A stretch of 64,000 bases of DNA, taken from assembly GCF_003334765.1 (NCBI RefSeq), contig NZ_QOWT01000003.1. One strand, given 5' to 3'. The notes beneath the pieces are model-generated. The model searched no databases, had not been told where the DNA came from, and saw nothing but the letters and a program-made list of their open reading frames with translations. Position 1 is the stretch's first letter. Each line of letters opens with the position of its first letter. A program made the position numbers and the translations under genes. Origin of the DNA: Escherichia coli (lineage in GTDB: Bacteria > Pseudomonadota > Gammaproteobacteria > Enterobacterales > Enterobacteriaceae). Positions 1,271 to 44,897 of this stretch are shown here, piece by piece.

Positions 1271-3406
1271 ATGAAATCAATGAATATTGCCGCCAGTAGT
1301 GAACTGGTATCCCGACTTTCTACTCATCGCCGCGTGGTGGCGTTGGGAGATACTGATTTTACGGACGTCGCGGCAGTCGTCATTACCGCTGCGGATAGTC
1401 GCAGTGGCATTCTTGCGTTGCTTAAGCGCACCGGTTTTCATCTACCGGTGTTTTTGTATTCCGAACATGCTGTTGAATTACCTGCGGGCGTTACGGCGGT
1501 AATCAACGGCAACGAGCAGCAGTGGCTGGAGCTGGAATCCGCAGCCTGTCAGTATGAAGAGAATTTGCTGCCACCGTTTTATGACACGCTGACGCAGTAC
1601 GTTGAGATGGGTAATAGCACCTTTGCTTGCCCTGGACATCAACATGGTGCGTTCTTTAAAAAGCATCCTGCCGGACGCCATTTTTACGATTTCTTTGGCG
1701 AGAACATCTTTCGCGCCGATATGTGTAACGCTGACGTAAAATTGGGCGATCTGCTTATTCATGAAGGATCGGCGAAAGATGCGCAGAAATTTGCAGCCAA
1801 AGTCTTTCATGCCGATAAAACCTATTTTGTGCTGAACGGCACATCGGCAGCGAATAAAGTGGTGACGAATGCGCTGTTAACGCGTGGCGATCTGGTGCTC
1901 TTCGACCGTAACAACCATAAGTCGAATCATCATGGCGCGTTGATTCAGGCGGGGGCGACGCCGGTCTATCTGCAAGCTTCACGTAACCCGTTTGGTTTCA
2001 TTGGCGGTATTGATGCGCACTGTTTTAATGAAGAGTATCTGCGCCAGCAAATTCGCGACGTTGCGCCAGAAAAAGCCGACCTGCCGCGCCCGTTTCGCCT
2101 GGCGATTATTCAGCTGGGAACCTATGACGGCACTGTCTATAACGCCCGTCAGGTGATCGATACCGTTGGGCATCTGTGTGATTACATTCTGTTTGATTCC
2201 GCGTGGGTCGGTTACGAACAGTTTATCCCGATGATGGCGGATAGCTCGCCGCTGCTGTTAGAACTTAACGAAAACGATCCGGGGATCTTTGTGACTCAGT
2301 CGGTGCACAAACAGCAGGCGGGATTCTCACAGACGTCGCAGATCCATAAAAAAGATAACCATATCCGTGGACAGGCGCGTTTTTGCCCACATAAGCGGTT
2401 GAATAATGCCTTTATGCTCCATGCTTCTACCAGCCCGTTCTATCCGCTGTTCGCCGCCCTGGACGTTAACGCCAAAATTCATGAAGGGGAGAGTGGGCGT
2501 CGGCTGTGGGCTGAGTGCGTTGAGTTGGGTATTGAGTCGCGCAAGGCTATTCTTACGCGCTGTAAGCTGTTCCGCCCGTTTATCCCGCCCGTTGTTGATG
2601 GCAAATTGTGGCAGGATTATCCGACGTCAGTGTTAGCCAGCGACCGCCGTTTTTTCAGTTTTGAGCCGGGGGCGAATTGGCACGGCTTTGAAGGATATGC
2701 CGCGGATCAGTATTTTGTTGATCCGTGCAAGCTGTTACTCACCACGCCGGGTATCGATGCCGAAACCGGCGAATATAGCGACTTTGGCGTTCCGGCGACG
2801 ATTCTGGCGCACTACCTGCGTGAGAACGGCATTGTGCCGGAGAAGTGCGATCTCAACTCCATTCTGTTCTTATTAACTCCGGCGGAAAGCCACGAGAAGC
2901 TGGCACAACTGGTGGCGATGCTGGCGCAGTTTGAACAGCATATTGAGGATGATTCGCCGCTGGCTGAGGTGTTGCCGAGCGTTTATAACAAATATCCGGT
3001 GCGCTATCGCGACTACACCCTGCGCCAGTTGTGTCAGGAGATGCACGATTTGTATGTCAGTTTCGACGTCAAAGACCTACAAAAAGCGATGTTCCGCCAG
3101 CAGAGTTTCCCGTCAGTGGTGATGAATCCCCAGGATGCGCATAGCGCTTATATTCGCGGTGAAGTGGAGTTGGTGCGGATTCGTGATGCCGAAGGGCGAA
3201 TTGCGGCAGAAGGGGCGTTGCCTTATCCACCTGGCGTGCTTTGCGTGGTACCCGGGGAAGTCTGGGGTGGGGCGGTTCAACGTTATTTCCTTGCGCTGGA
3301 AGAAGGCGTGAATTTGTTGCCGGGATTTTCGCCGGAGTTGCAAGGTGTCTATAGCGAAACCGATGCGGATGGCATGAAACGGTTGTACGGTTATGTGTTG
3401 AAGTAA
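1271..3406 (+). CDS. speC: ornithine decarboxylase, biosynthetic (711 aa)
   Basis: ORF translation MKSMNIAASSELVSRL... 711 aa, recognised as SpeC. Confidence 0.95.
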   Translation: MKSMNIAASSELVSRLSTHRRVVALGDTDFTDVAAVVITAADSRSGILALLKRTGFHLPVFLYSEHAVELPAGVTAVINGNEQQWLELESAACQYEENLLPPFYDTLTQYVEMGNSTFACPGHQHGAFFKKHPAGRHFYDFFGENIFRADMCNADVKLGDLLIHEGSAKDAQKFAAKVFHADKTYFVLNGTSAANKVVTNALLTRGDLVLFDRNNHKSNHHGALIQAGATPVYLQASRNPFGFIGGIDAHCFNEEYLRQQIRDVAPEKADLPRPFRLAIIQLGTYDGTVYNARQVIDTVGHLCDYILFDSAWVGYEQFIPMMADSSPLLLELNENDPGIFVTQSVHKQQAGFSQTSQIHKKDNHIRGQARFCPHKRLNNAFMLHASTSPFYPLFAALDVNAKIHEGESGRRLWAECVELGIESRKAILTRCKLFRPFIPPVVDGKLWQDYPTSVLASDRRFFSFEPGANWHGFEGYAADQYFVDPCKLLLTTPGIDAETGEYSDFGVPATILAHYLRENGIVPEKCDLNSILFLLTPAESHEKLAQLVAMLAQFEQHIEDDSPLAEVLPSVYNKYPVRYRDYTLRQLCQEMHDLYVSFDVKDLQKAMFRQQSFPSVVMNPQDAHSAYIRGEVELVRIRDAEGRIAAEGALPYPPGVLCVVPGEVWGGAVQRYFLALEEGVNLLPGFSPELQGVYSETDADGMKRLYGYVLK

Positions 3407-3454: not shown

Positions 3455-4711
3455 TTAGTGGCTAACCGTCTGTGTACCTGTCGGGACACGAACGTGTTTA
3501 TATTTGAACATCGCCATGAACGCGAAGGCCAGAACCACGGAGTAACCTGCGAAAATCAGCCATACGGTCTGCCAGTCGGTAATGCCGTTTTGGGTGTACA
3601 TCTCAACCACTTTACCGCTCACGATGCCGCCGAGGATACAGCCGAAGCCGTTGGTCATCATCAGGAACATCCCCTGCGCGCTGGCGCGAATTGCCGGGCT
3701 AACTTCTTTTTCGACAAACACCGAACCAGAGATGTTGAAGAAGTCGAATGCGCAACCGTAAACGATCATCGACAGTACCAGCAGTACAGTACCGAACGGA
3801 GTCGGGTCGCCGTAAGCAAACAGAGCAAAACGCAGGATCCACGCCACAATACTGATCATCATTACGTTCTTAATACCGTAGCGGCTTAAGAAGAACGGGA
3901 TGGTCAGAATGAACAGGGTTTCAGAGATCTGCGAAATCGACATGATGATTGACGCATGCTGCACGATGAAGCTGCTGGCAAACATCGGATCTTTGTCGAA
4001 GCTGTGCAGGAAGGTATTACCGAACATGTTGGTAATCTGCAGTTCCGCGCCCAGCAGCATTGAGAAGATGAAGAAGATTGCCATGCGCTTGTTTTTAAAC
4101 AGAGCGAATGCATCGAGGCCCAGCAGGGTTGTCCAGCTCTGATTCGCTTGCTGTTTAGCAACCGGAATATGCGGCAGAGTCAGGGTAAACAGAACCAGAA
4201 TGGCGGAAAGCGCTGCGCCAATATACAGCTGCATGTGGCTTAATTCGAAGCCGGACAGGCTCACCACCCACATTGCCATGATAAAGCCGATGGTGCCCCA
4301 GATACGGATTGGCGGGAAGTCAGTAACGATATCCATCCCGGCATTTTGCAGGCGATAGTAAGAGATGGTGTTGATTAACCCAAGCGTTGGCATATAAGCA
4401 AACGAGTTAATCAATATCACAAGGAACATCGCCTCCGGCGTAGTGACCTCTGCCGCCATGAACAGCGTGATAGCGCCAATGGTGTGGCAAATGGCATAGA
4501 CCCATTTCGCACTTAACCATTTGTCGGCCACAATCCCCAGCAGCGCAGGCATAAAGACCGCGGCGATACCCAGTGAGCTATAAACTGCGCCGATAGAAGC
4601 ACCGTCAAACTTCAGGGTAACAAACATATAGGAGCCGAGGGTCGTCAGCCAACTTCCCCACAGACAGAACTGCAGAAAAGAGAGGATTTTCAGCTGCAGC
4701 TTAAGATTCAT
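3455..4711 (-). CDS. nupG: nucleoside:H+ symporter NupG (418 aa)
   Basis: ORF track 3455..4759; known protein starts MNLKLQLKILSFLQF 16 codons downstream of the ORF start; GAGGAA RBS upstream of that ATG. Confidence 0.93.
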   Translation of the reverse strand: MNLKLQLKILSFLQFCLWGSWLTTLGSYMFVTLKFDGASIGAVYSSLGIAAVFMPALLGIVADKWLSAKWVYAICHTIGAITLFMAAEVTTPEAMFLVILINSFAYMPTLGLINTISYYRLQNAGMDIVTDFPPIRIWGTIGFIMAMWVVSLSGFELSHMQLYIGAALSAILVLFTLTLPHIPVAKQQANQSWTTLLGLDAFALFKNKRMAIFFIFSMLLGAELQITNMFGNTFLHSFDKDPMFASSFIVQHASIIMSISQISETLFILTIPFFLSRYGIKNVMMISIVAWILRFALFAYGDPTPFGTVLLVLSMIVYGCAFDFFNISGSVFVEKEVSPAIRASAQGMFLMMTNGFGCILGGIVSGKVVEMYTQNGITDWQTVWLIFAGYSVVLAFAFMAMFKYKHVRVPTGTQTVSH

Positions 4712-10859: not shown

Positions 10860-11867
10860 GTGAAAAAGCAATGGATTGTTGGTACGGCGCTGTTTATGTT
10901 GATGACTGGTAATGTCCGGGCAGATGGTGAACCGCCAACTGAAAATATCTTAAAAGATCAATTCAAAAAGCAGTATCACGGCATTCTCAAGCTTGATGTC
11001 ATCACCTTAAAAAATCTTGATGCTAAGGGTAATCAGGCCACCTGGTCAGCGGAAGGCGATGTCTCTTCCAGTGACGATCTCTATACCTGGGTCGGTCAGT
11101 TGGCAGATTACGAGCTGCTCGAACAGACCTGGACGAAAGATAAACCGGTGAAATTCTCGGCGATGTTAACCAGTAAAGGAACGCCCGCGTCTGGCTGGTC
11201 GGTGAACTTTTACTCTTTTCAGGCGGCAGCCAGCGATCGTGGGCGGGTGGTTGACGATATCAAAACCAATAATAAATATCTGATCGTGAATAGCGAAGAT
11301 TTCAATTATCGCTTTAGTCAGCTTGAGTCTGCGTTGAATAACCAGAATAACTCGATTCCTGCACTGAAAAAGGATGTAAAAGCGCTTGATAAGCAAATGG
11401 TGGCGGCGCAGAAAGCAGCGGATGCATATTGGGGAAAAGATGCAAACGGTAAGCAAATGACCCGCGAAGACGCCTTTAAAAAAATTCACCAACAGCGTGA
11501 TGATTTTAATAAACAGAACGATAGTGAGGCGTTCGCGGTTAAATATGACAAAGAGGTTTATCAACCGGCGATTGCGGCATGTCATAAACAGAGTGAAGAG
11601 TGTTATGAAGTGCCAATTCAGCAGAAACGAGATTTTGATATCAATGAACAACGGCGACAGACTTTTCTGCAATCACAAAAACTTAGCCGTAAATTGCAGG
11701 ATGACTGGATAACGCTCGAAAAAGGGCAATATCCGTTAACGATGAAAGTTTCAGAAATAAACAGTAAAAAAGTCACGATTTTGATGAAAATTGACGATAT
11801 CAACCAGGCTAATGAACGCTGGAAAAAAGATACCGAACAATTGCGGCGCAATGGGGTGATTAAGTAA
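10860..11867 (+). CDS. yggM: DUF1202 family protein YggM (335 aa), GTG start
   Basis: 335-aa secreted ORF; synteny ansB-yggM-hemW. Confidence 0.85.
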   Translation: MKKQWIVGTALFMLMTGNVRADGEPPTENILKDQFKKQYHGILKLDVITLKNLDAKGNQATWSAEGDVSSSDDLYTWVGQLADYELLEQTWTKDKPVKFSAMLTSKGTPASGWSVNFYSFQAAASDRGRVVDDIKTNNKYLIVNSEDFNYRFSQLESALNNQNNSIPALKKDVKALDKQMVAAQKAADAYWGKDANGKQMTREDAFKKIHQQRDDFNKQNDSEAFAVKYDKEVYQPAIAACHKQSEECYEVPIQQKRDFDINEQRRQTFLQSQKLSRKLQDDWITLEKGQYPLTMKVSEINSKKVTILMKIDDINQANERWKKDTEQLRRNGVIK

Positions 11868-20646: not shown

Positions 20647-22041
20647 TTAATCGTGAGCGCCGATTTCGCGCAGTTTACGACCTTTCATCAGATTACGTTC
20701 AATATGTTCCAGCGAAACGTGTTTGGTTTCCGGTACCAGCCACAATGTCAGCAGGATAAACAGTACGTTCAGAGCAGCATACACCCAGAAGGTGTTGGCG
20801 TTACCCAGCGTGTTGAGCATGGTCAGGAACGTTGCGCCAACGATCATGTTGGCAATCCAGTTGGTGGCAGTGGAGCAGGTGATGCCAAAATCGCGGCCTT
20901 TCAGCGGCTGAATTTCGGAGCACAGTACCCAAATCAGCGGACCGGCACTCATGGCAAAACCGACAATAAACATCAGCAGCATGGCGATGGCGAAATACTG
21001 CGCCGACGGAGAGTGGATACCGATATGCATCATTGTACCGAGTACGCCCATACCAGCAGCCATCACCAGGAAGCCCAGCGTTAGCGTTGGTTTACGTCCC
21101 CAGCGGTCAACAAGGCCGATTGCGATAAAGGTGGCAAGTACGTTGGTCAGGCCGACAATCACTGTCCCCCACATTTGCTCGGTGGTGTTGGTATAACCCG
21201 CCAGTTCGAAGATTTTCGGCGCGTAATACATGATGACGTTCATCCCGGTGAATTGCTGCATTACCTGCAATAGTACGCCAAGGAACACCGCGCGGCGGAA
21301 GTTGCTATTCTCTTTAAACAGCGCCCAGCCACTCTGTTTAACCTGCAAACTTTCACGGATTTCATCCAGTTCGCGTTTCGCTTCCGCGCTGGTGTCACGC
21401 AGGCGTAGCAGCACGCGTTCGGCATCAACAAAACGGCGTTTGGCGGCAAACCAACGTGGGCTGTCTGGCAGGAAGAAGACACCAATCAGCAGCAAAATTG
21501 CCGGGATGATAATCACACCCAGCATCCAGCGCCATGCACCGGTGTAGCTGAAGGCGGTATCAGAAAGATAAGCGCCGAGGATCCCGATAGTGATCATCAA
21601 CTGATACATCGAGATCATACTGCCGCGAATTTTTTCCGGCGCAATTTCAGAGAGGTACAGCGGTGCGGTATAAGAGGCCACACCCACTGCCAGCCCCAGC
21701 AAAACGCGGGAAAGAATCAGTACTTCAACGTTTGGCGCAGCAGCAGAGAACAGTGAACCGGCAACAAACAAGATTGCGCCGATCATCAGGCTCTTTTTGC
21801 GCCCGAGTTTAAAGGAGAGCCAGCCGCTGCCCACCGCACCGACTGCCGCACCGAACATCATGGAGCTTACGACCCATTCTTGCGTGTGCGAAGTAATCTG
21901 GAATTCATCTGCAATAAACGGCAGTGCGCCAGCAATTACACCGATATCCAGGCCAAAGAGTAATCCCGCCAGAGCGGCAAGGAAGCAGACGAAAAACGTC
22001 ATTGCCTTGTTTGACCGCCCCTGTTTTTTAGCGTCAGGCAT
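20647..22041 (-). CDS. galP: galactose:H+ symporter GalP (464 aa), MFS sugar porter
   Basis: [42 protein letters not shown]... recognised. Confidence 0.96.
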
Positions 22042-22104
22042 GATGCCCTCCAATATGGTTATTTTTTATTGTGAATTAAGATAGGTGAGTACGACGTAAA
22101 AAGA

Positions 22105-22139
22105 TGTGAAGCAAATCACATCAGTGTAATCGCTTACAC
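22105..22139 (-). promoter_or_regulatory. galP control region: perfect CRP palindrome TGTGA-AGCAAA-TCACA (22105-22120) and GalR/GalS-type operator GTGTAATCGCTTACAC (22124-22139)
   Basis: motifs read directly; galP is known to be regulated by CRP, GalR and GalS. Confidence 0.65.
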
Positions 22140-22426
22140 TAACATTTATCTTAGTTATGATTTAAGTGCATGAAAATAATTGAGTTATATCATCATAGAT
22201 TAAACGCTGTTATCTGCAATTAAGACTTTACTGAAAAGAAATGTAACAACTGTGAAAACCGAATAATAATATGAAAATATTACAAATCTTTGTCTGGTGT
22301 GGTTGGTGTAATCGGTTTCAGTAGCGATGATAATTTGCGGTAAAACGTGTTCAGGAAGAATGATGTTATTGTGCGGGCAGCTTTTTGCCGGATGCCGCGT
22401 GAACGCCTATCCACCGCGGTGAGGTA

Positions 22427-29418: not shown

Positions 29419-31410
29419 ATGTCCTCACGTAAAGAGCTTGCCAATGCTATTCGTGCGCTGAGCATGGACGCAGTACAGAAAGCCAAATCCGGTCACCCGG
29501 GTGCCCCTATGGGTATGGCTGACATTGCCGAAGTCCTGTGGCGTGATTTCCTGAAACACAACCCGCAGAATCCGTCCTGGGCTGACCGTGACCGCTTCGT
29601 GCTGTCCAACGGCCACGGCTCCATGCTGATCTACAGCCTGCTGCACCTCACCGGTTACGATCTGCCGATGGAAGAACTGAAAAACTTCCGTCAGCTGCAC
29701 TCTAAAACTCCGGGCCACCCGGAAGTAGGTTATACCGCTGGTGTGGAAACCACCACCGGTCCGCTGGGTCAGGGTATTGCCAACGCAGTCGGTATGGCGA
29801 TTGCAGAAAAAACGCTGGCGGCGCAGTTTAACCGTCCGGGCCACGACATTGTCGACCACTACACCTACGCCTTCATGGGTGACGGCTGCATGATGGAAGG
29901 CATCTCCCACGAAGTTTGCTCTCTGGCGGGTACGCTGAAGCTGGGTAAACTGATTGCGTTCTACGATGACAACGGTATCTCTATCGATGGTCACGTTGAA
30001 GGCTGGTTCACCGACGACACCGCAATGCGTTTCGAAGCTTACGGCTGGCACGTTATTCGCGACATCGACGGTCATGACGCGGCATCCATCAAACGCGCAG
30101 TAGAAGAAGCGCGCGCAGTGACTGACAAACCGTCCCTGCTGATGTGCAAAACCATCATCGGTTTCGGTTCCCCGAACAAAGCCGGTACCCACGACTCCCA
30201 CGGTGCGCCACTGGGCGACGCTGAAATTGCCCTGACCCGCGAACAGCTGGGCTGGAAATATGCACCGTTCGAAATCCCGTCTGAAATCTATGCTCAGTGG
30301 GATGCGAAAGAAGCAGGCCAGGCGAAAGAATCCGCATGGAACGAGAAATTCGCTGCTTACGCGAAAGCTTATCCGCAGGAAGCCGCTGAATTTACCCGCC
30401 GTATGAAAGGCGAAATGCCGTCTGACTTCGACGCCAAAGCGAAAGAGTTCATCGCTAAACTGCAGGCTAACCCGGCGAAAATCGCCAGCCGTAAAGCGTC
30501 TCAGAATGCGATTGAAGCGTTCGGCCCGCTGTTGCCGGAATTCCTCGGCGGCTCTGCTGACCTGGCACCGTCTAACCTGACCCTGTGGTCTGGTTCTAAA
30601 GCAATCAACGAAGATGCTGCGGGTAACTACATCCACTACGGTGTTCGCGAGTTCGGTATGACCGCGATTGCTAACGGTATCTCCCTGCACGGTGGCTTCC
30701 TGCCGTACACCTCCACCTTCCTGATGTTCGTGGAATACGCACGTAACGCCGTACGTATGGCTGCGCTGATGAAACAGCGTCAGGTGATGGTTTACACCCA
30801 CGACTCCATCGGTCTGGGCGAAGATGGCCCGACTCACCAGCCGGTTGAGCAGGTCGCTTCACTGCGCGTGACCCCGAACATGTCTACATGGCGTCCGTGT
30901 GACCAGGTTGAATCTGCAGTGGCATGGAAATACGGCGTTGAGCGTCAGGACGGCCCGACTGCGCTTATCCTCTCCCGTCAGAACCTGGCGCAGCAGGAAC
31001 GTACTGAAGAGCAGCTGGCAAACATCGCGCGCGGTGGTTATGTGCTGAAAGACTGTGCCGGTCAGCCGGAACTGATCTTCATCGCGACCGGTTCTGAAGT
31101 TGAACTGGCGGTTGCTGCCTACGAAAAACTGACTGCTGAAGGCGTGAAAGCGCGCGTGGTTTCCATGCCGTCTACCGACGCGTTCGACAAGCAGGATGCG
31201 GCTTACCGTGAGTCTGTACTGCCGAAAGCGGTTACTGCACGCGTTGCGGTGGAAGCGGGTATTGCTGACTACTGGTACAAGTATGTTGGCCTGAACGGTG
31301 CTATCGTCGGCATGACCACCTTCGGTGAATCTGCTCCGGCAGAGCTGCTGTTTGAAGAGTTCGGCTTCACCGTTGACAACGTTGTTGCGAAAGCAAAAGA
31401 ACTGCTGTAA
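29419..31410 (+). CDS. tktA: transketolase 1 (663 aa)
   Basis: [41 protein letters not shown]... recognised; GGAG RBS. Confidence 0.98.
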
Positions 31411-31432
31411 TCGGTAAGATGCTTTGTGAGAA

Positions 31433-31457
31433 GGGCCGCGAAAGCGGCCCTTTTTTT
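31433..31457. terminator. tktA rho-independent terminator; its T-tract overlaps the stop codon of the convergent SPFH gene
   Basis: GGGCCGCGAAAGCGGCCC hairpin followed by TTTTTTT. Confidence 0.85.
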
Positions 31458-32364
31458 ACTTAGTAGAGATAAACGGAACTGTGCTGCCGGGGATCATGGT
31501 ATCGGGCAGTTTACCGTCCCAACGTTCGGCAGTGGTGAGGGCTACAAGTCCGGGATTATCCCGCAGAGCTTCACCGCGCAGGCGGATCGCTTCTGCTTCA
31601 GCCGCACTTTTTAAACGAATAGTTTCAGCCTCTGCCGCGCCTCTTACGCGAATAGTTTCCGCTTCTGCTTTAGCTGCCGCCAGTTTACTGTCTGCTTCTG
31701 CCTGGGCCTGAGTTACCGCTATTTGCGCCTGGATTTTCTCTGTTTCCAGATTTTGCTTACGCGTGGCAATGGCGACTTCTGCTTTCATTCGGTCTTCAAT
31801 CGACTTTTCATAAGCGTCAGAAAAATCAATATTTTCAATCTGGACCCCGTCAATTACCACTGGCCCAACAACGGCTTTGCGCATGGCATTTTGCAGATCC
31901 TGAACCAGTTTTGTACGATCCTGTACCGCGCTGATGGCGGTATATTGGCCGAAAACGTTCTCCAGTTGAGTTGGCAACTGACGGACAATCAGACGATCTT
32001 TTAATGCTTCAATGGTGTTGTAGGTGGTATAAACCGCGCCTGCTTCTGAAGGTTTAATGTGGAAGCTGACTGATACTGTCATTTGTGCCGGTTGCTGGTC
32101 GCGGCTGTAGGCCTGTAATCCCTGATAGACCACAGCCTGATTACGCGTGGAAATTTTCTCCACGCTTTCCATAAACGGGATCTTAAAACCCAGACCCGGC
32201 TCGGCAACTTTTACGATTTTTCCGTAGCGCAGCAAAATGCCGCGTTCACCTTCATTAACGGTGTAATACGAGAGAAATGGCAGCACAACCACGGCAAGCA
32301 CGCCAATGGCGATAGCAAGAGATTTTTGTGGGCGAAATGAGGTTAATGAAACAGGTGCTTTCAT
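31456..32364 (-). CDS. SPFH/band-7 (prohibitin/HflC-like) membrane protein (302 aa from ATG; ORF extends to a GTG at 32400)
   Basis: N-terminal TM segment LAIAIGVLAVVVLPF, PHB-type core GERGILLRYGKI..., C-terminal Ala/Glu-rich coiled coil AEAETIRVRGAAEAETIRLKSAAEAEAIRLRGEA; AAGGAAG RBS before the ATG at 32364; not one of the four K-12 SPFH genes (hflK, hflC, qmcA, yqiK). Confidence 0.85.
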   Translation of the reverse strand: MKAPVSLTSFRPQKSLAIAIGVLAVVVLPFLSYYTVNEGERGILLRYGKIVKVAEPGLGFKIPFMESVEKISTRNQAVVYQGLQAYSRDQQPAQMTVSVSFHIKPSEAGAVYTTYNTIEALKDRLIVRQLPTQLENVFGQYTAISAVQDRTKLVQDLQNAMRKAVVGPVVIDGVQIENIDFSDAYEKSIEDRMKAEVAIATRKQNLETEKIQAQIAVTQAQAEADSKLAAAKAEAETIRVRGAAEAETIRLKSAAEAEAIRLRGEALRDNPGLVALTTAERWDGKLPDTMIPGSTVPFISTK

Positions 32365-32740
32365 ATGAATCTTCCTTGAGTAAAGTGGGGAATATGTCAC
32401 ATGAGGTAAGGAGAAAATAGCCGACAGGTGAGAATTCAGAATCTATAAAGGGGTATAGCGAAAAAACGTTGCATTAAAAAAGTATGTTTTCGGATATTCA
32501 ATAAATAAATGGCGATATGCATCACAAATACAATAACAAACAAAATGTTGATTTTGTGATAAACATAACAAATACAAAGTTGACTTTAAAAATATCAATT
32601 TCATATTGTTGTTATTTAAGGTTTTATTATTTTGGTTTATGGGGTTTTTCTTCTCGCGTACCCAATTGCTTTCATTAAACCGCACGAGTATTTTATTTTT
32701 ACCGCCGGACGGTACCCTAAAAATAAAATAAGGATAATTT

Positions 32741-33184
32741 ATGCGGCTTAGTGATTATTTTCCAGAATCATCAATCTCAGTTATACATTCAGCAAAAGAT
32801 TGGCAGGAAGCTATCGATTTCTCGATGGCATCATTGCTGGATAAAAACTATATCAGCGAGAATTACATTCAGGCAATTAAAGATTCCACCATTAACAATG
32901 GCCCTTATTATATTCTCGCGCCAGGTGTGGCAATGCCTCATGCGCGACCGGAATGTGGGGCGCTTAAAACCGGGATGTCTTTGACGTTACTTAAACAAGG
33001 CGTTTATTTTCCGGGGAATGACGAACCGATTAAATTACTCATCGGGCTTTCTGCTGCCGATGCCGATTCGCACATTGGCGCTATTCAGGCGTTAAGTGAA
33101 TTACTGTGCGAAGAAGAAATACTCGAACAACTCTTAACAGCATCATCAGAAAAACAATTAGCGGACATTATCAGCTGCGGATAA
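32741..33184 (+). CDS. cmtB: PTS EIIA component, mannitol-family (cryptic), 147 aa
   Basis: MRLSDYFPESSISVIHSAKDWQEAIDFSMASLLDK... recognised. Confidence 0.9.
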   Translation: MRLSDYFPESSISVIHSAKDWQEAIDFSMASLLDKNYISENYIQAIKDSTINNGPYYILAPGVAMPHARPECGALKTGMSLTLLKQGVYFPGNDEPIKLLIGLSAADADSHIGAIQALSELLCEEEILEQLLTASSEKQLADIISCG

Positions 33185-33211
33185 TGACTCTCTCCTCTAC
33201 AGGATAATATT

Positions 33212-34600
33212 ATGGAAAACAAGTCTGCTCGTGCAAAGGTCCAGGCTTTTGGGGGCTTTTTGACGGCAATGGTCATCCCCAATATCGGTGCTTTTATTGC
33301 CTGGGGTTTTATTACTGCATTATTTATTCCTACTGGTTGGCTGCCGAATGAACATTTCGCCAAAATTGTCGGCCCGATGATTACCTATTTATTGCCCGTG
33401 ATGATTGGTTCTACCGGTGGTCATCTGGTCGGCGGTAAACGCGGCGCGGTCATGGGCGGAATTGGTACGATTGGTGTGATCGTCGGCGCAGAGATCCCGA
33501 TGTTCCTTGGCTCAATGATTATGGGGCCGCTCGGTGGGCTGGTCATAAAATATGTCGATAAGGCACTGGAAAAACGCATACCTGCTGGTTTTGAGATGGT
33601 TATCAATAACTTCTCATTAGGTATCGCGGGGATGCTCCTTTGTCTGCTGGGTTTTGAAGTGATCGGCCCGGCGGTGTTAATTGCCAATACTTTCGTCAAA
33701 GAGTGTATTGAGGCGCTGGTACATGCGGGTTATCTGCCTCTGCTGTCAGTCATCAATGAACCGGCGAAAGTGCTTTTCCTTAATAATGCGATCGATCAGG
33801 GCGTCTATTATCCGCTGGGAATGCAACAGGCTTCGGTTAACGGTAAATCCATCTTCTTTATGGTGGCCTCTAACCCAGGTCCGGGCCTGGGGCTGCTGCT
33901 GGCGTTTACCTTGTTTGGTAAAGGGATGAGTAAACGTTCTGCGCCCGGGGCGATGATTATTCACTTCCTCGGTGGGATCCACGAACTGTATTTCCCATAT
34001 GTGCTGATGAAGCCGCTGACTATTATTGCCATGATTGCGGGCGGTATGTCTGGCACCTGGATGTTTAACTTACTGGACGGTGGTCTGGTGGCTGGCCCAA
34101 GTCCGGGGTCTATCTTTGCTTACCTGGCGCTGACGCCGAAAGGTTCGTTCCTGGCGACAATTGCCGGTGTTACGGTAGGTACCCTGGTGTCCTTTGCTAT
34201 CACTTCGCTGATACTGAAGATGGAAAAAACGGTGGAAACGGAGAGCGAAGATGAGTTTGCTCAGTCAGCCAATGCGGTTAAGGCGATGAAACAAGAGGGT
34301 GCATTCTCGTTAAGCCGGGTTAAGCGTATCGCCTTTGTTTGCGATGCGGGGATGGGCTCCAGCGCGATGGGCGCAACCACCTTCCGTAAACGTCTGGAAA
34401 AAGCGGGGCTGGCAATTGAAGTAAAACATTACGCGATAGAAAACGTGCCTGCGGATGCGGATATCGTCGTTACTCATGCCAGTCTGGAAGGGCGCGTGAA
34501 ACGTGTGACGGATAAATCACTGATATTGATTAATAACTATATTGGCGATCCAAAACTCGACACTTTATTTAATCAATTAACCGCAGAACATAAACACTGA
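33212..34600 (+). CDS. cmtA: PTS EIICB component, mannitol-family (cryptic), 462 aa
   Basis: 462-aa polytopic ORF with C-terminal EIIB domain (CDAGMGSSAM). Confidence 0.9.
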   Translation: MENKSARAKVQAFGGFLTAMVIPNIGAFIAWGFITALFIPTGWLPNEHFAKIVGPMITYLLPVMIGSTGGHLVGGKRGAVMGGIGTIGVIVGAEIPMFLGSMIMGPLGGLVIKYVDKALEKRIPAGFEMVINNFSLGIAGMLLCLLGFEVIGPAVLIANTFVKECIEALVHAGYLPLLSVINEPAKVLFLNNAIDQGVYYPLGMQQASVNGKSIFFMVASNPGPGLGLLLAFTLFGKGMSKRSAPGAMIIHFLGGIHELYFPYVLMKPLTIIAMIAGGMSGTWMFNLLDGGLVAGPSPGSIFAYLALTPKGSFLATIAGVTVGTLVSFAITSLILKMEKTVETESEDEFAQSANAVKAMKQEGAFSLSRVKRIAFVCDAGMGSSAMGATTFRKRLEKAGLAIEVKHYAIENVPADADIVVTHASLEGRVKRVTDKSLILINNYIGDPKLDTLFNQLTAEHKH

Positions 34601-43990: not shown

Positions 43991-44731
43991 GTGAAGTTCA
44001 AAGTTATCGCCCTGGCGGCATTAATGGGTATTAGCGGGATGGCAGCGCAGGCTAACGAATTGCCGGATGGACCGCATATTGTCACCTCCGGTACGGCAAG
44101 CGTGGATGCGGTGCCAGACATTGCCACTCTTGCGATTGAAGTTAACGTGGCCGCGAAGGATGCCGCTACTGCCAAGAAACAGGCAGATGAGCGCGTCGCA
44201 CAATACATTTCCTTCCTTGAACTCAATCAGATCGCGAAAAAAGATATCAGCTCAGCGAACTTACGCACCCAGCCAGATTATGATTATCAGGATGGTAAAA
44301 GTATCCTGAAAGGCTACCGCGCTGTGAGAACGGTGGAAGTCACGCTCCGTCAGTTAGACAAACTGAATTCCTTGCTGGATGGCGCGCTGAAGGCGGGTCT
44401 TAACGAAATTCGTTCTGTGTCGCTGGGCGTGGCGCAGCCGGATGCCTATAAAGACAAAGCGCGTAAGGCAGCGATTGATAACGCGATTCATCAGGCGCAG
44501 GAACTGGCGAACGGCTTTCATCGTAAACTGGGGCCGGTATATAGCGTGCGCTACCATGTTTCCAACTATCAGCCCAGCCCAATGGTGCGGATGATGAAAG
44601 CCGATGCCGCGCCGGTGTCCGCCCAGGAAACTTACGAGCAGGCCGCTATTCAGTTTGATGATCAGGTCGATGTGGTCTTCCAGTTAGAACCTGTGGATCA
44701 ACAACCCGCTAAAACACCTGCAGCACAATAA
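43991..44731 (+). CDS. yggE: DUF541 periplasmic oxidative-stress protein YggE (246 aa)
   Basis: 246-aa secreted ORF; synteny. Confidence 0.88.
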   Translation: MKFKVIALAALMGISGMAAQANELPDGPHIVTSGTASVDAVPDIATLAIEVNVAAKDAATAKKQADERVAQYISFLELNQIAKKDISSANLRTQPDYDYQDGKSILKGYRAVRTVEVTLRQLDKLNSLLDGALKAGLNEIRSVSLGVAQPDAYKDKARKAAIDNAIHQAQELANGFHRKLGPVYSVRYHVSNYQPSPMVRMMKADAAPVSAQETYEQAAIQFDDQVDVVFQLEPVDQQPAKTPAAQ

Positions 44732-44897
44732 TACTTGTAGCCCGACGTATTCGTCGGGCTAATGCCTTTACCCGATATTGCCTCCTTTTTCTGTAATTTT
44801 CTGTAAAACCATGACGTAATCACCTATCTTTGCTCGCGGTTTCATCAAGGATAGGCTGACTGAAACGGTTAAGCGGACAAGGATGCGGGGGAGGGGG

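Follow-up and report, generated by a model that had tools for sequence, protein, structure and literature searches.

The bgl operon of Escherichia coli is a cryptic, CRP-dependent sugar PTS operon that has been shown experimentally to be silenced by H-NS from upstream and downstream elements. Its activation by insertion sequences or by mutations in the CRP site has also been demonstrated experimentally, and the operon possesses a BglG antiterminator leader. The cmt operon considered here resembles bgl in several respects, being a 'cryptic' sugar PTS operon with an AT-rich control region, a CRP-dependent promoter and a reported association with H-NS. It differs in that the H-NS flag of cmt is given at the level of the transcription unit only, and in that a scan revealed nothing terminator-like in the cmt region. 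The bgl operon is also the model that an earlier reading of this DNA (the sequence-only reading) had in mind.

Other related systems are the promoters with tandem CRP sites and papBA. The mtlA promoter carries several CRP sites, and deoP2, cdd and nupG each carry two sites together with CytR. In papBA, CRP acts from about -215 by countering H-NS. The cmtB region shares with the tandem-CRP promoters the presence of two CRP sites upstream of a carbohydrate transport operon; however, the CytR-type promoters have a spacing of 52–53 bp as compared to 44 bp at cmtB, and the distances of the cmtB sites to the predicted starts are atypical. Similarly to papBA, the CRP sites at cmtB lie far upstream of the best-conserved core promoter in an AT-rich divergent region that possibly binds H-NS, although CRP anti-silencing at cmt is a conjecture. 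Two CRP sites each are also listed for mtlA and yibI in enterotoxigenic E. coli (ETEC) (PMC4287617, Table 1).

The closest described system is the same locus in K-12 and ETEC H10407. Shimada et al. (2011, PMC3105977, Table S3) employed SELEX-chip to identify CGTGTTGTAGATCACA as a CRP site between cmtBA-yggPFDC and tktA in K-12. A cmtB-lacZ fusion with the K-12-type allele was found to be active, and its activity drops in a crp mutant (PMC3105977). Haycocks et al. (2015, PMC4287617) showed by ChIP-seq that this site is occupied by CRP in vivo in ETEC. A comparison of the K-12 tktA–cmtB region with the DNA analyzed here reveals the same locus and layout, with a CRP site at -230 and a CRP-like site 44 bp downstream, and an identical last 78 bp. 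The K-12 spacer is different in being 313 bp long and lacking an SPFH gene, so that tkt reads directly towards cmtB. In the present allele the region is divergent and 63 bp longer, and its distal 184 bp are only 51% identical to those of K-12.

The locus and its proposed function

The window, i.e., the whole 64,000-nucleotide stretch of the E. coli chromosome that was analyzed, contains the following features around the spacer in question.

29419–31410, plus strand: tkt, the start of the local gene order
31433–31457: terminator of tkt, hairpin GGGCCGC-GAAA-GCGGCCC followed by T7, read from the sequence; this type of hairpin also occurs 3' of tkt in other genera
31456–32364, minus strand: SPFH/Band-7 (prohibitin family) gene, 302 aa, ATG at 32364, convergent with tkt
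32365–32740: spacer between the SPFH gene and cmtB, 376 bp, 30.9% GC
32741–33184, plus strand: cmtB, PTS mannitol-type IIA component (NCBIfam equivalog NF007358, 323 bits; RefSeq), the first gene of cmtBA-yggPF...
3' of cmtB, plus strand: cmtA, yggP and a glpX-type gene, in that order

The SPFH gene product matches Pfam Band_7 with an E-value of 5.6e-32 and is named 'prohibitin family protein' in RefSeq. The stop codon of this convergent gene and the T-run of the tkt terminator overlap each other. Both genes that flank the spacer have a ribosome-binding site, AAGGAAG at 32371–77 on the minus strand for the SPFH gene and AAGGA at 32730–34 for cmtB. About 20 nt upstream of the former, which is a good site, lies an extended -10-like element, TGaCATATT (32391–99, minus strand). 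In the alignment it is common to six SPFH-bearing alleles, and it is a candidate SPFH promoter element.

The sequence-only reading described an AT-rich tract that forms a divergent promoter/regulatory region between the SPFH gene and cmtB. The first point was confirmed: positions 32461–32800 are the lowest-GC 340 bp in the 64 kb, with 28.5% GC vs. a mean of 51.5% (sd 4.6), and thus constitute the GC minimum of the window. The second turned out to be right in outline, and proteins do bind there. We estimate a probability of about 80% that the tract is the transcriptional control region of cmtBA-yggPF, joined at its far end to the short promoter and leader of the divergent SPFH gene, with cAMP-CRP acting at tandem sites. 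When glucose is absent, cAMP-CRP bound at these sites would activate the transcription of cmtB. Activation by CRP has been shown for the K-12-type allele; in the case of the present allele it is suggested by positional homology and site scores.

Other candidates in the spacer were considered. Small ORFs of 53, 41 and 80 aa were rejected as genes, their RefSeq annotation being absent in all 30 genomes listed; the 53-aa frame also meets a stop after 8 codons in the aligned B2 allele. An Rfam search of 31300–33300 with E ≤ 1 gave no match in 32365–32740. The sole match, a weak one, is AaHKsRNA20 on the tkt terminator (30.5 bits, with a gathering score of 43). A comparison by eye with the consensus sequences of sigma-54 and Cra boxes gave no match.

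Tandem CRP sites and the conserved layout

The proposed control region contains two predicted CRP sites and two promoter-like elements.

32511–32526: predicted CRP site 1, GGCGATATGCATCACA, centre 222.5 bp upstream of the cmtB ATG, starting at -230
32555–32570: predicted CRP or CRP-like site 2, TGTGATAAACATAACA, 44 bp downstream of site 1, starting at -186
32580–32607, plus strand: distal promoter-like element from the promoter scan (9/12), TTGACT-16 bp-CATATT, of putative function
32666–32694, plus strand: proximal promoter-like element, TTGCTT-17 bp-TATTTT, at -75 to -47; transcription is predicted to start near 32701

A repeated ACAAATACAA motif had been noticed before, and it is indeed there: the window contains exactly two copies (32524–33 and 32568–77), 44 bp apart and inside a 20-nt direct repeat. 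The motif corresponds to the right half and flank of the two tandem CRP sites. The sites were scored with a position weight matrix derived from 104 sites of the ETEC H10407 ChIP-seq study (PMC4287617, Table 1), built without the cmtB, galP and nupG sites. Site 1 reaches 12.9 bits, which places it above 50% of the training sites and at rank 5 of the ~64,000 window positions; 0.4% of spacer shuffles with matched AT content attain this score. With 15.2 bits, site 2 takes rank 4 in the window and exceeds 77% of the 104 training sites, a value attained in 0.1% of such shuffles. The three higher scores belong to the known nupG site, the known galP site and an uncharacterised site at 60978–60993. The matrix is validated by its lower-ranked matches in the window, which include sites published for serA, ygfI, epd and argP.

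Two further candidates were discarded. A third CRP-like site at 32386–401 matches the consensus at 8 of 10 positions but scores only 5.5 bits. A CytR octamer, GTTGCATT at 32469–76, is not conserved and is the only one in the region.

CRP site 1 aligns position for position with the K-12/ETEC site, which is also at -230. Across genera the alignment is almost free of gaps and the offsets from the cmtB ATG are fixed, with CRP site starts at -230 and -186 and TTG at -161 and -75. The same layout is seen in most of the ~30 enterobacterial species scanned. The 44-bp spacing of the CRP sites was recovered in 25 of 32 taxa scanned; for the remaining seven, a different pair was selected by the script. 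In most other genera the left half of site 2 is TGCAA rather than TGTGA (TGCAA-N6-TCACA in many), and for this reason site 2 could belong to another factor.

Of the two candidate core promoters of cmtB, the proximal element is the better supported. A scan for sigma-70-like pairs that required a real TTG in the -35 hexamer found only this pair to be positionally constant: TTGCTT or TTGATT, 17 bp and TATTTT occur at the same offset in 19 of 19 gap-free taxa. Its match to the consensus is only 7–8 of 12, and its blocks are invariant or nearly so. On its 3' side there follow a nearly invariant GTATTTTATTTTTA, 14–16 variable bases and a conserved GTACCCTAAAAATAAAATAAGGA just before the ATG. The distal element, with a predicted start near 32614, may serve as a second core promoter. 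Its TTG at -161 is invariant across genera, but most other taxa have only a weak -10-like hexamer, such as TAACTC or CAATTC. The ancestral layout would comprise two CRP sites, the -35-like TTG at -161, a core of TTGMTT-17 bp-TATTTT and a conserved A-rich leader.

The CRP sites are centred at about -51.5 and -95.5 relative to the predicted distal start, and at about -138.5 and -182.5 relative to the predicted proximal start. Neither set of distances fits the usual 41.5 or 61.5 cleanly. A class II geometry for site 2 was considered and rejected, since no positionally conserved -10 is found at the required distance.

Inverted repeats, DNA shape and H-NS

Next to cmtB there is a second symmetric element, which is absent from the sequence-only reading.

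32689–32701 and 32718–32730, plus strand: 13-nt perfect inverted repeat with the arms TATTTTATTTTTA and TAAAAATAAAATA, around the GC hairpin ACCG-CCGGA-CGGT

The repeat is non-random, as none of 500 shuffles gave a perfect 13-nt repeat. The left arm coincides with the proximal -10 and the right arm abuts the ribosome-binding site of cmtB. A role of the repeat as a terminator or attenuator was rejected: on either strand the stem has a T-run before it and an A-run after it, and a scan for terminators was negative.

The two arms could be paired half-sites of a specific repressor that covers the proximal -10, the start and the early leader, which would explain the cryptic look of the operon. Perfection over 13 nt, seen in 0 of 500 shuffles, speaks for such a repressor, as do the sequence conservation of both arms across genera, with 14–16 freely varying bp between them, and the overlap of the left arm with the best-conserved -10. 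However, the operon neither contains nor adjoins a regulator gene, and in 9 of 25 taxa a deletion of 3–5 nt shortens the right arm but leaves the left arm intact. There is also another plausible reason for the conservation of each arm, and no second perfect copy of the half-site occurs elsewhere in the window; a search for further copies returned only matches with two mismatches and of no evident meaning. We therefore consider a dedicated repressor unlikely. Our reading is that the arms are conserved for separate reasons, the left one as the -10 and start region and the right one as an A-rich translation initiation region.

It is also possible, though we would give it only a small chance, that the region is a geometry-dependent nucleoprotein switch. 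CRP bound 140–180 bp upstream would act against a repressor or an H-NS filament, and E. coli would keep two (or three) very old versions of the switch, one of them maybe from outside the genus. A gap-free 230-bp layout in about ten genera despite drift between the motifs, together with a 13-nt repeat that brackets the -10 and leader, could mark such a switch.

A third proposal is that, in transcripts starting upstream, the 13-nt repeat forms a leader RNA hairpin that acts against the ribosome-binding site and throttles the translation of cmtB. The hairpin is present in the minimum-energy folds, with z = -3.6 when folded as 51 nt of single-stranded DNA, and the first A of the ribosome-binding site is the last base of the right arm. 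Folded as RNA in its context, however, the repeat gives a z of only -0.7 to -1.2. RNAalifold on 25 taxa predicted no consensus structure (0 pairs), and in a search for covariation no pair of the long helix was changed on both sides, while the inner stem pairs in 60% of the cells. Rfam gave no match, and the left arm would be untranscribed if the start is that of the proximal promoter. Such control of translation is quite improbable.

The sequence-only reading went further and suggested that a curved, H-NS-silenced tract with a 7-bp inverted repeat as a candidate operator may explain why cmt is cryptic; in this model the operator would serve a dedicated regulator. The repeat concerned lies between the two CRP sites.

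32540–32557: 7-bp inverted repeat ACAAAAT-GTTG-ATTTTGT, its right arm shared with the flank and the initial bases of CRP site 2

The repeat does exist, but its symmetry is at chance level. When the spacer was shuffled 1000 times with its dinucleotides preserved, 47% of the shuffles gave an equal or better perfect repeat (arms ≥7 nt, loop ≤10). The left arm lacks conservation, reading ATAATTT in the B2 allele. It is not kept in E. whittamii, in E. albertii or in the MOD1, SCPM and K-12-type alleles, and it is also different in L005, L007 and L017. The right arm is kept across alleles because its sequence is supplied by CRP site 2, with the A/T flank and initial TGT of that site. The 7-bp repeat is a chance feature without a role of its own, and its candidacy as an operator falls.

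The proposed DNA shape fared no better. The AA/TT periodicity at 10–11.5 bp, expected of phased A/T tracts, is matched or exceeded in 61% of shuffles. In a wedge model, read only as a relative ranking of curvature within the window, the tract falls between percentiles 20 and 95, and predicted curvature was thus not borne out.

The case for H-NS itself is mixed. Higashi et al. (2016, PMC4720273, S2 Table) flagged the cmtBA-yggPFDC transcription unit as H-NS-bound in ChAP-seq; the flag may refer to the promoter, to intergenic DNA or to a coding region, applies to one or more of the strains SE11, SE15 and K-12, and gives no position. The H-NS nucleation motif TCGATAAATT has one 8/10 match in the tract (32498–32507) as compared to a shuffle mean of 1.5, with as good a result in 78% of shuffles, and is not enriched. 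The idea of an H-NS-type region is retained only in part: the composition is plausible and the transcription unit is flagged, but motif enrichment, phasing and curvature were not found. From its composition, binding of H-NS to the tract is plausible. We put the involvement of H-NS at about even odds.

Complete silencing is another matter. H-NS filaments exclude CRP elsewhere, according to the same ETEC study that shows CRP on the cmtB site (PMC4287617). The cmtB gene was induced 2- to 3-fold in enterohemorrhagic E. coli (EHEC) grown in bovine gut contents (PMC6199705). The CRP occupancy, the CRP-dependent reporter and the induction by gut contents argue against complete silencing of the K-12-type allele. 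The composite model of a curved, silenced tract with its own operator has on its side the very AT-rich composition, the ChAP-seq flag of the transcription unit and the single match to TCGATAAATT. It is contradicted by a 7-bp repeat at chance level whose left arm is missing from the B2, E. whittamii, MOD1, SCPM and K-12-type alleles, by the lack of A-tract phasing, predicted curvature and H-NS motif enrichment, and by the in vivo CRP occupancy and reporter activity of the K-12-type allele. We regard it as very unlikely.

In the preferred reading, that of a CRP-controlled promoter region, the low GC content would result from the close packing of promoter, UP-like and regulator sequences that are rich in A and T. 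H-NS is probably attracted as well by this composition and may keep basal expression low.

Origin of the tract and its versions in E. coli

The tract is a mosaic, in which 32365 to ~32475 derive from an SPFH insertion confined to Escherichia and ~32476–32740 are ancestral.

32365–32475, minus strand: insertion-derived part of the spacer, ~110 bp, 38.7% GC, right edge uncertain by ~10 bp
32476–32740, plus strand: ancestral cmtB control region, ~265 bp, 27.5% GC, with gap-free homology to tkt–cmtB spacers

The ancestral 265 bp, with 27.5% GC vs. 51.5% for the window, are the lowest in the window. They are homologous without gaps to the tkt–cmtB spacer of K-12 and of ~30 other enterobacterial species; the homology across genera starts at about 32476–32487. 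The insertion spans the DNA from the T-run of the tkt terminator (~31457) to ~32475 and accounts for the length difference of 1017 bp relative to K-12. The cmtB loci of 33 species were compared. In every genus other than Escherichia whose fetched DNA reaches tkt, the order is tkt, ~315 bp and cmtB, and the SPFH gene is missing, as for example in Citrobacter, Salmonella (arizonae and diarizonae), Raoultella, Lelliottia, Silvania, Superficieibacter and Huaxiibacter. The gene is present in E. albertii, E. whittamii, two other Escherichia lineages and B2 E. coli. Upstream of cmtB, a stretch of 300 bp has a GC content of 27–37% in each of the 23 related taxa examined, independent of the presence of the SPFH gene, from which it follows that the AT-richness is old and belongs to the cmtB control region rather than being imported. 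The notion that the AT-rich DNA is foreign and arrived together with the SPFH gene, an Escherichia-only insertion that does adjoin the tract, is hardly tenable: only ~110 bp (38.7% GC) belong to the insertion, the gene itself has 49% GC, and a foreign origin of the AT-richest 265 bp (32476–32740) is already refuted by the homologous, equally AT-rich spacers of species without the gene.

Within E. coli the SPFH gene occurs in 1831 of 5426 complete genomes (34%). The whole spacer is found in 1789 of the 5426; the other genomes, including K-12, BL21 and O157:H7, share only its last 78 bp. The K-12-type spacer occurs in 3595 genomes, and these together with the 1831 that possess the SPFH gene make exactly 5426. 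All 5426 complete E. coli genomes carry one of two very divergent promoter versions, one of which is joined to the SPFH insertion.

The divergence between the versions is concentrated in the distal part. Identity between the K-12 and window types is 51% from -262 to -79 (184 bp), then rises to 100% over the following 78 bp and amounts to 98% in cmtB, which gives a sharp edge at 32662/32663. The distal segment of either E. coli type is 46–53% identical to that of Citrobacter or Salmonella, and K-12 vs. window is no better. The B2 allele compares with the window at 98.5% for the SPFH gene, 94.8% for cmtB and only 72.7% for the distal control region, the last value coming from a gapped alignment with small indels. 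Identities of 72.7% or 51% in the distal region vs. 95–98% in the flanking genes suggest either that the control region diverges far faster than its neighbours with the motif positions kept, or that the haplotypes are very old, one of them perhaps imported.

In general, this is an ordinary and largely known catabolic promoter region, and its CRP dependence has already been published for the K-12 allele. The analysis provides an element map for a poorly understood sugar PTS operon, with two CRP sites, two candidate core promoters and a conserved leader. That its AT-richness is ancestral and not imported is a useful by-product. Competition between H-NS and CRP of the kind seen at bgl or estA, if it occurs here, would make the locus a further natural example but would not add a new principle. 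If the region were to act as a geometry-dependent switch after all, the E. coli versions would represent a clean species-wide dimorphism.

Two forms of the tkt-cmtB locus in E. coli

The tkt-cmtB locus turned out to be cleanly dimorphic among complete E. coli genomes, as seen when window positions 31411-32662 are compared with positions 3766-4000 of the K-12-type locus, which lacks the SPFH gene. The K-12-type spacer of 235 bp is present in 3595 complete genomes and the SPFH gene in 1831, the two numbers adding up to exactly 5426. The window carries the SPFH-bearing form, in which the following features are relevant here:

31456-32364, minus strand: SPFH/prohibitin-family gene
32365-32740: spacer between the SPFH gene and cmtB
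32476-32662: distal segment of the cmtB control region
32741-33184, plus strand: cmtB

In a RefSeq-annotated locus (spacer at 3999-4374), the locus tags skip from RS04205 (SPFH) to RS04215 (cmtB), and a spacer feature called at one time seems to have been dropped since.

In a B2 strain, the stretch from tkt to the SPFH gene contains a REP-like insertion of 174 bp (2871-3089 of its locus), with a copy of the tkt terminator hairpin on either side. In the window, an Rfam search returned a weak match to Aggregatibacter sRNA 20 at 31395-31462. Its score of 30.5 bits is below the gathering score of 43, and its position is that of the tkt terminator hairpin, which is most likely all that was matched.

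Two contigs, L029 under the name Chryseobacterium sp. and L033 under the name Alkalicoccobacillus porphyridii, contain enterobacterial DNA. L029 carries tkt-cmtB-cmtA, while L033, a contig of 297 bp, holds a partial cmtB 96% identical to that of E. coli; both are probably assembly contamination.

Other AT-rich tracts of the window and predicted curvature

The remaining two AT-richest tracts of the window lie at 60951-61290 (30.9% GC) and 22021-22360 (32.4% GC), and each contains a top-scoring CRP site according to a position weight matrix built from 104 ETEC ChIP-seq sites:

60978-60993: predicted CRP site TTTGATACCCATCACA, 15.5 bits
22105-22120: published CRP site of galP, within the tract 22021-22360

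In 120-bp stretches, a wedge model, used for relative ranking only, places the strongest curvature of the window at about 44730-44880, 11710-11830, and 51190-51310, with end-to-end/contour ratios down to 0.72 (mean 0.97).

Motifs and allele divergence in the cmtB control region

An inverted repeat, TAAC-N5-GTTA, is located 139-127 bp upstream of cmtB (window 32602-32614; K-12-type locus 3940-3952). It is kept in K-12, E. albertii, Lelliottia, Enterobacter, and Raoultella, is degenerate in the window allele (CATATTGTTGTTA), and could be a site for some factor. An exact CytR-type octamer, GTTGCATT, occurs at 32469-32476, at the edge of the SPFH insertion; the alignment revealed no conservation of it in other SPFH-bearing alleles.

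The window and B2 alleles, both SPFH-bearing, are only 72.7% identical in the distal control region (32476-32662 vs. 4110-4296 of the B2 locus), the SPFH gene being 98.5% and cmtB 94.8% identical. Between the K-12 and window types, identity in this segment is 51%, no higher than that of either type to Citrobacter or Salmonella, whereas the adjoining 78 bp (32663-32740) are 100% identical and cmtB 98%. Such an abrupt change at 32662/32663 suggests the boundary of an old recombination or replacement.
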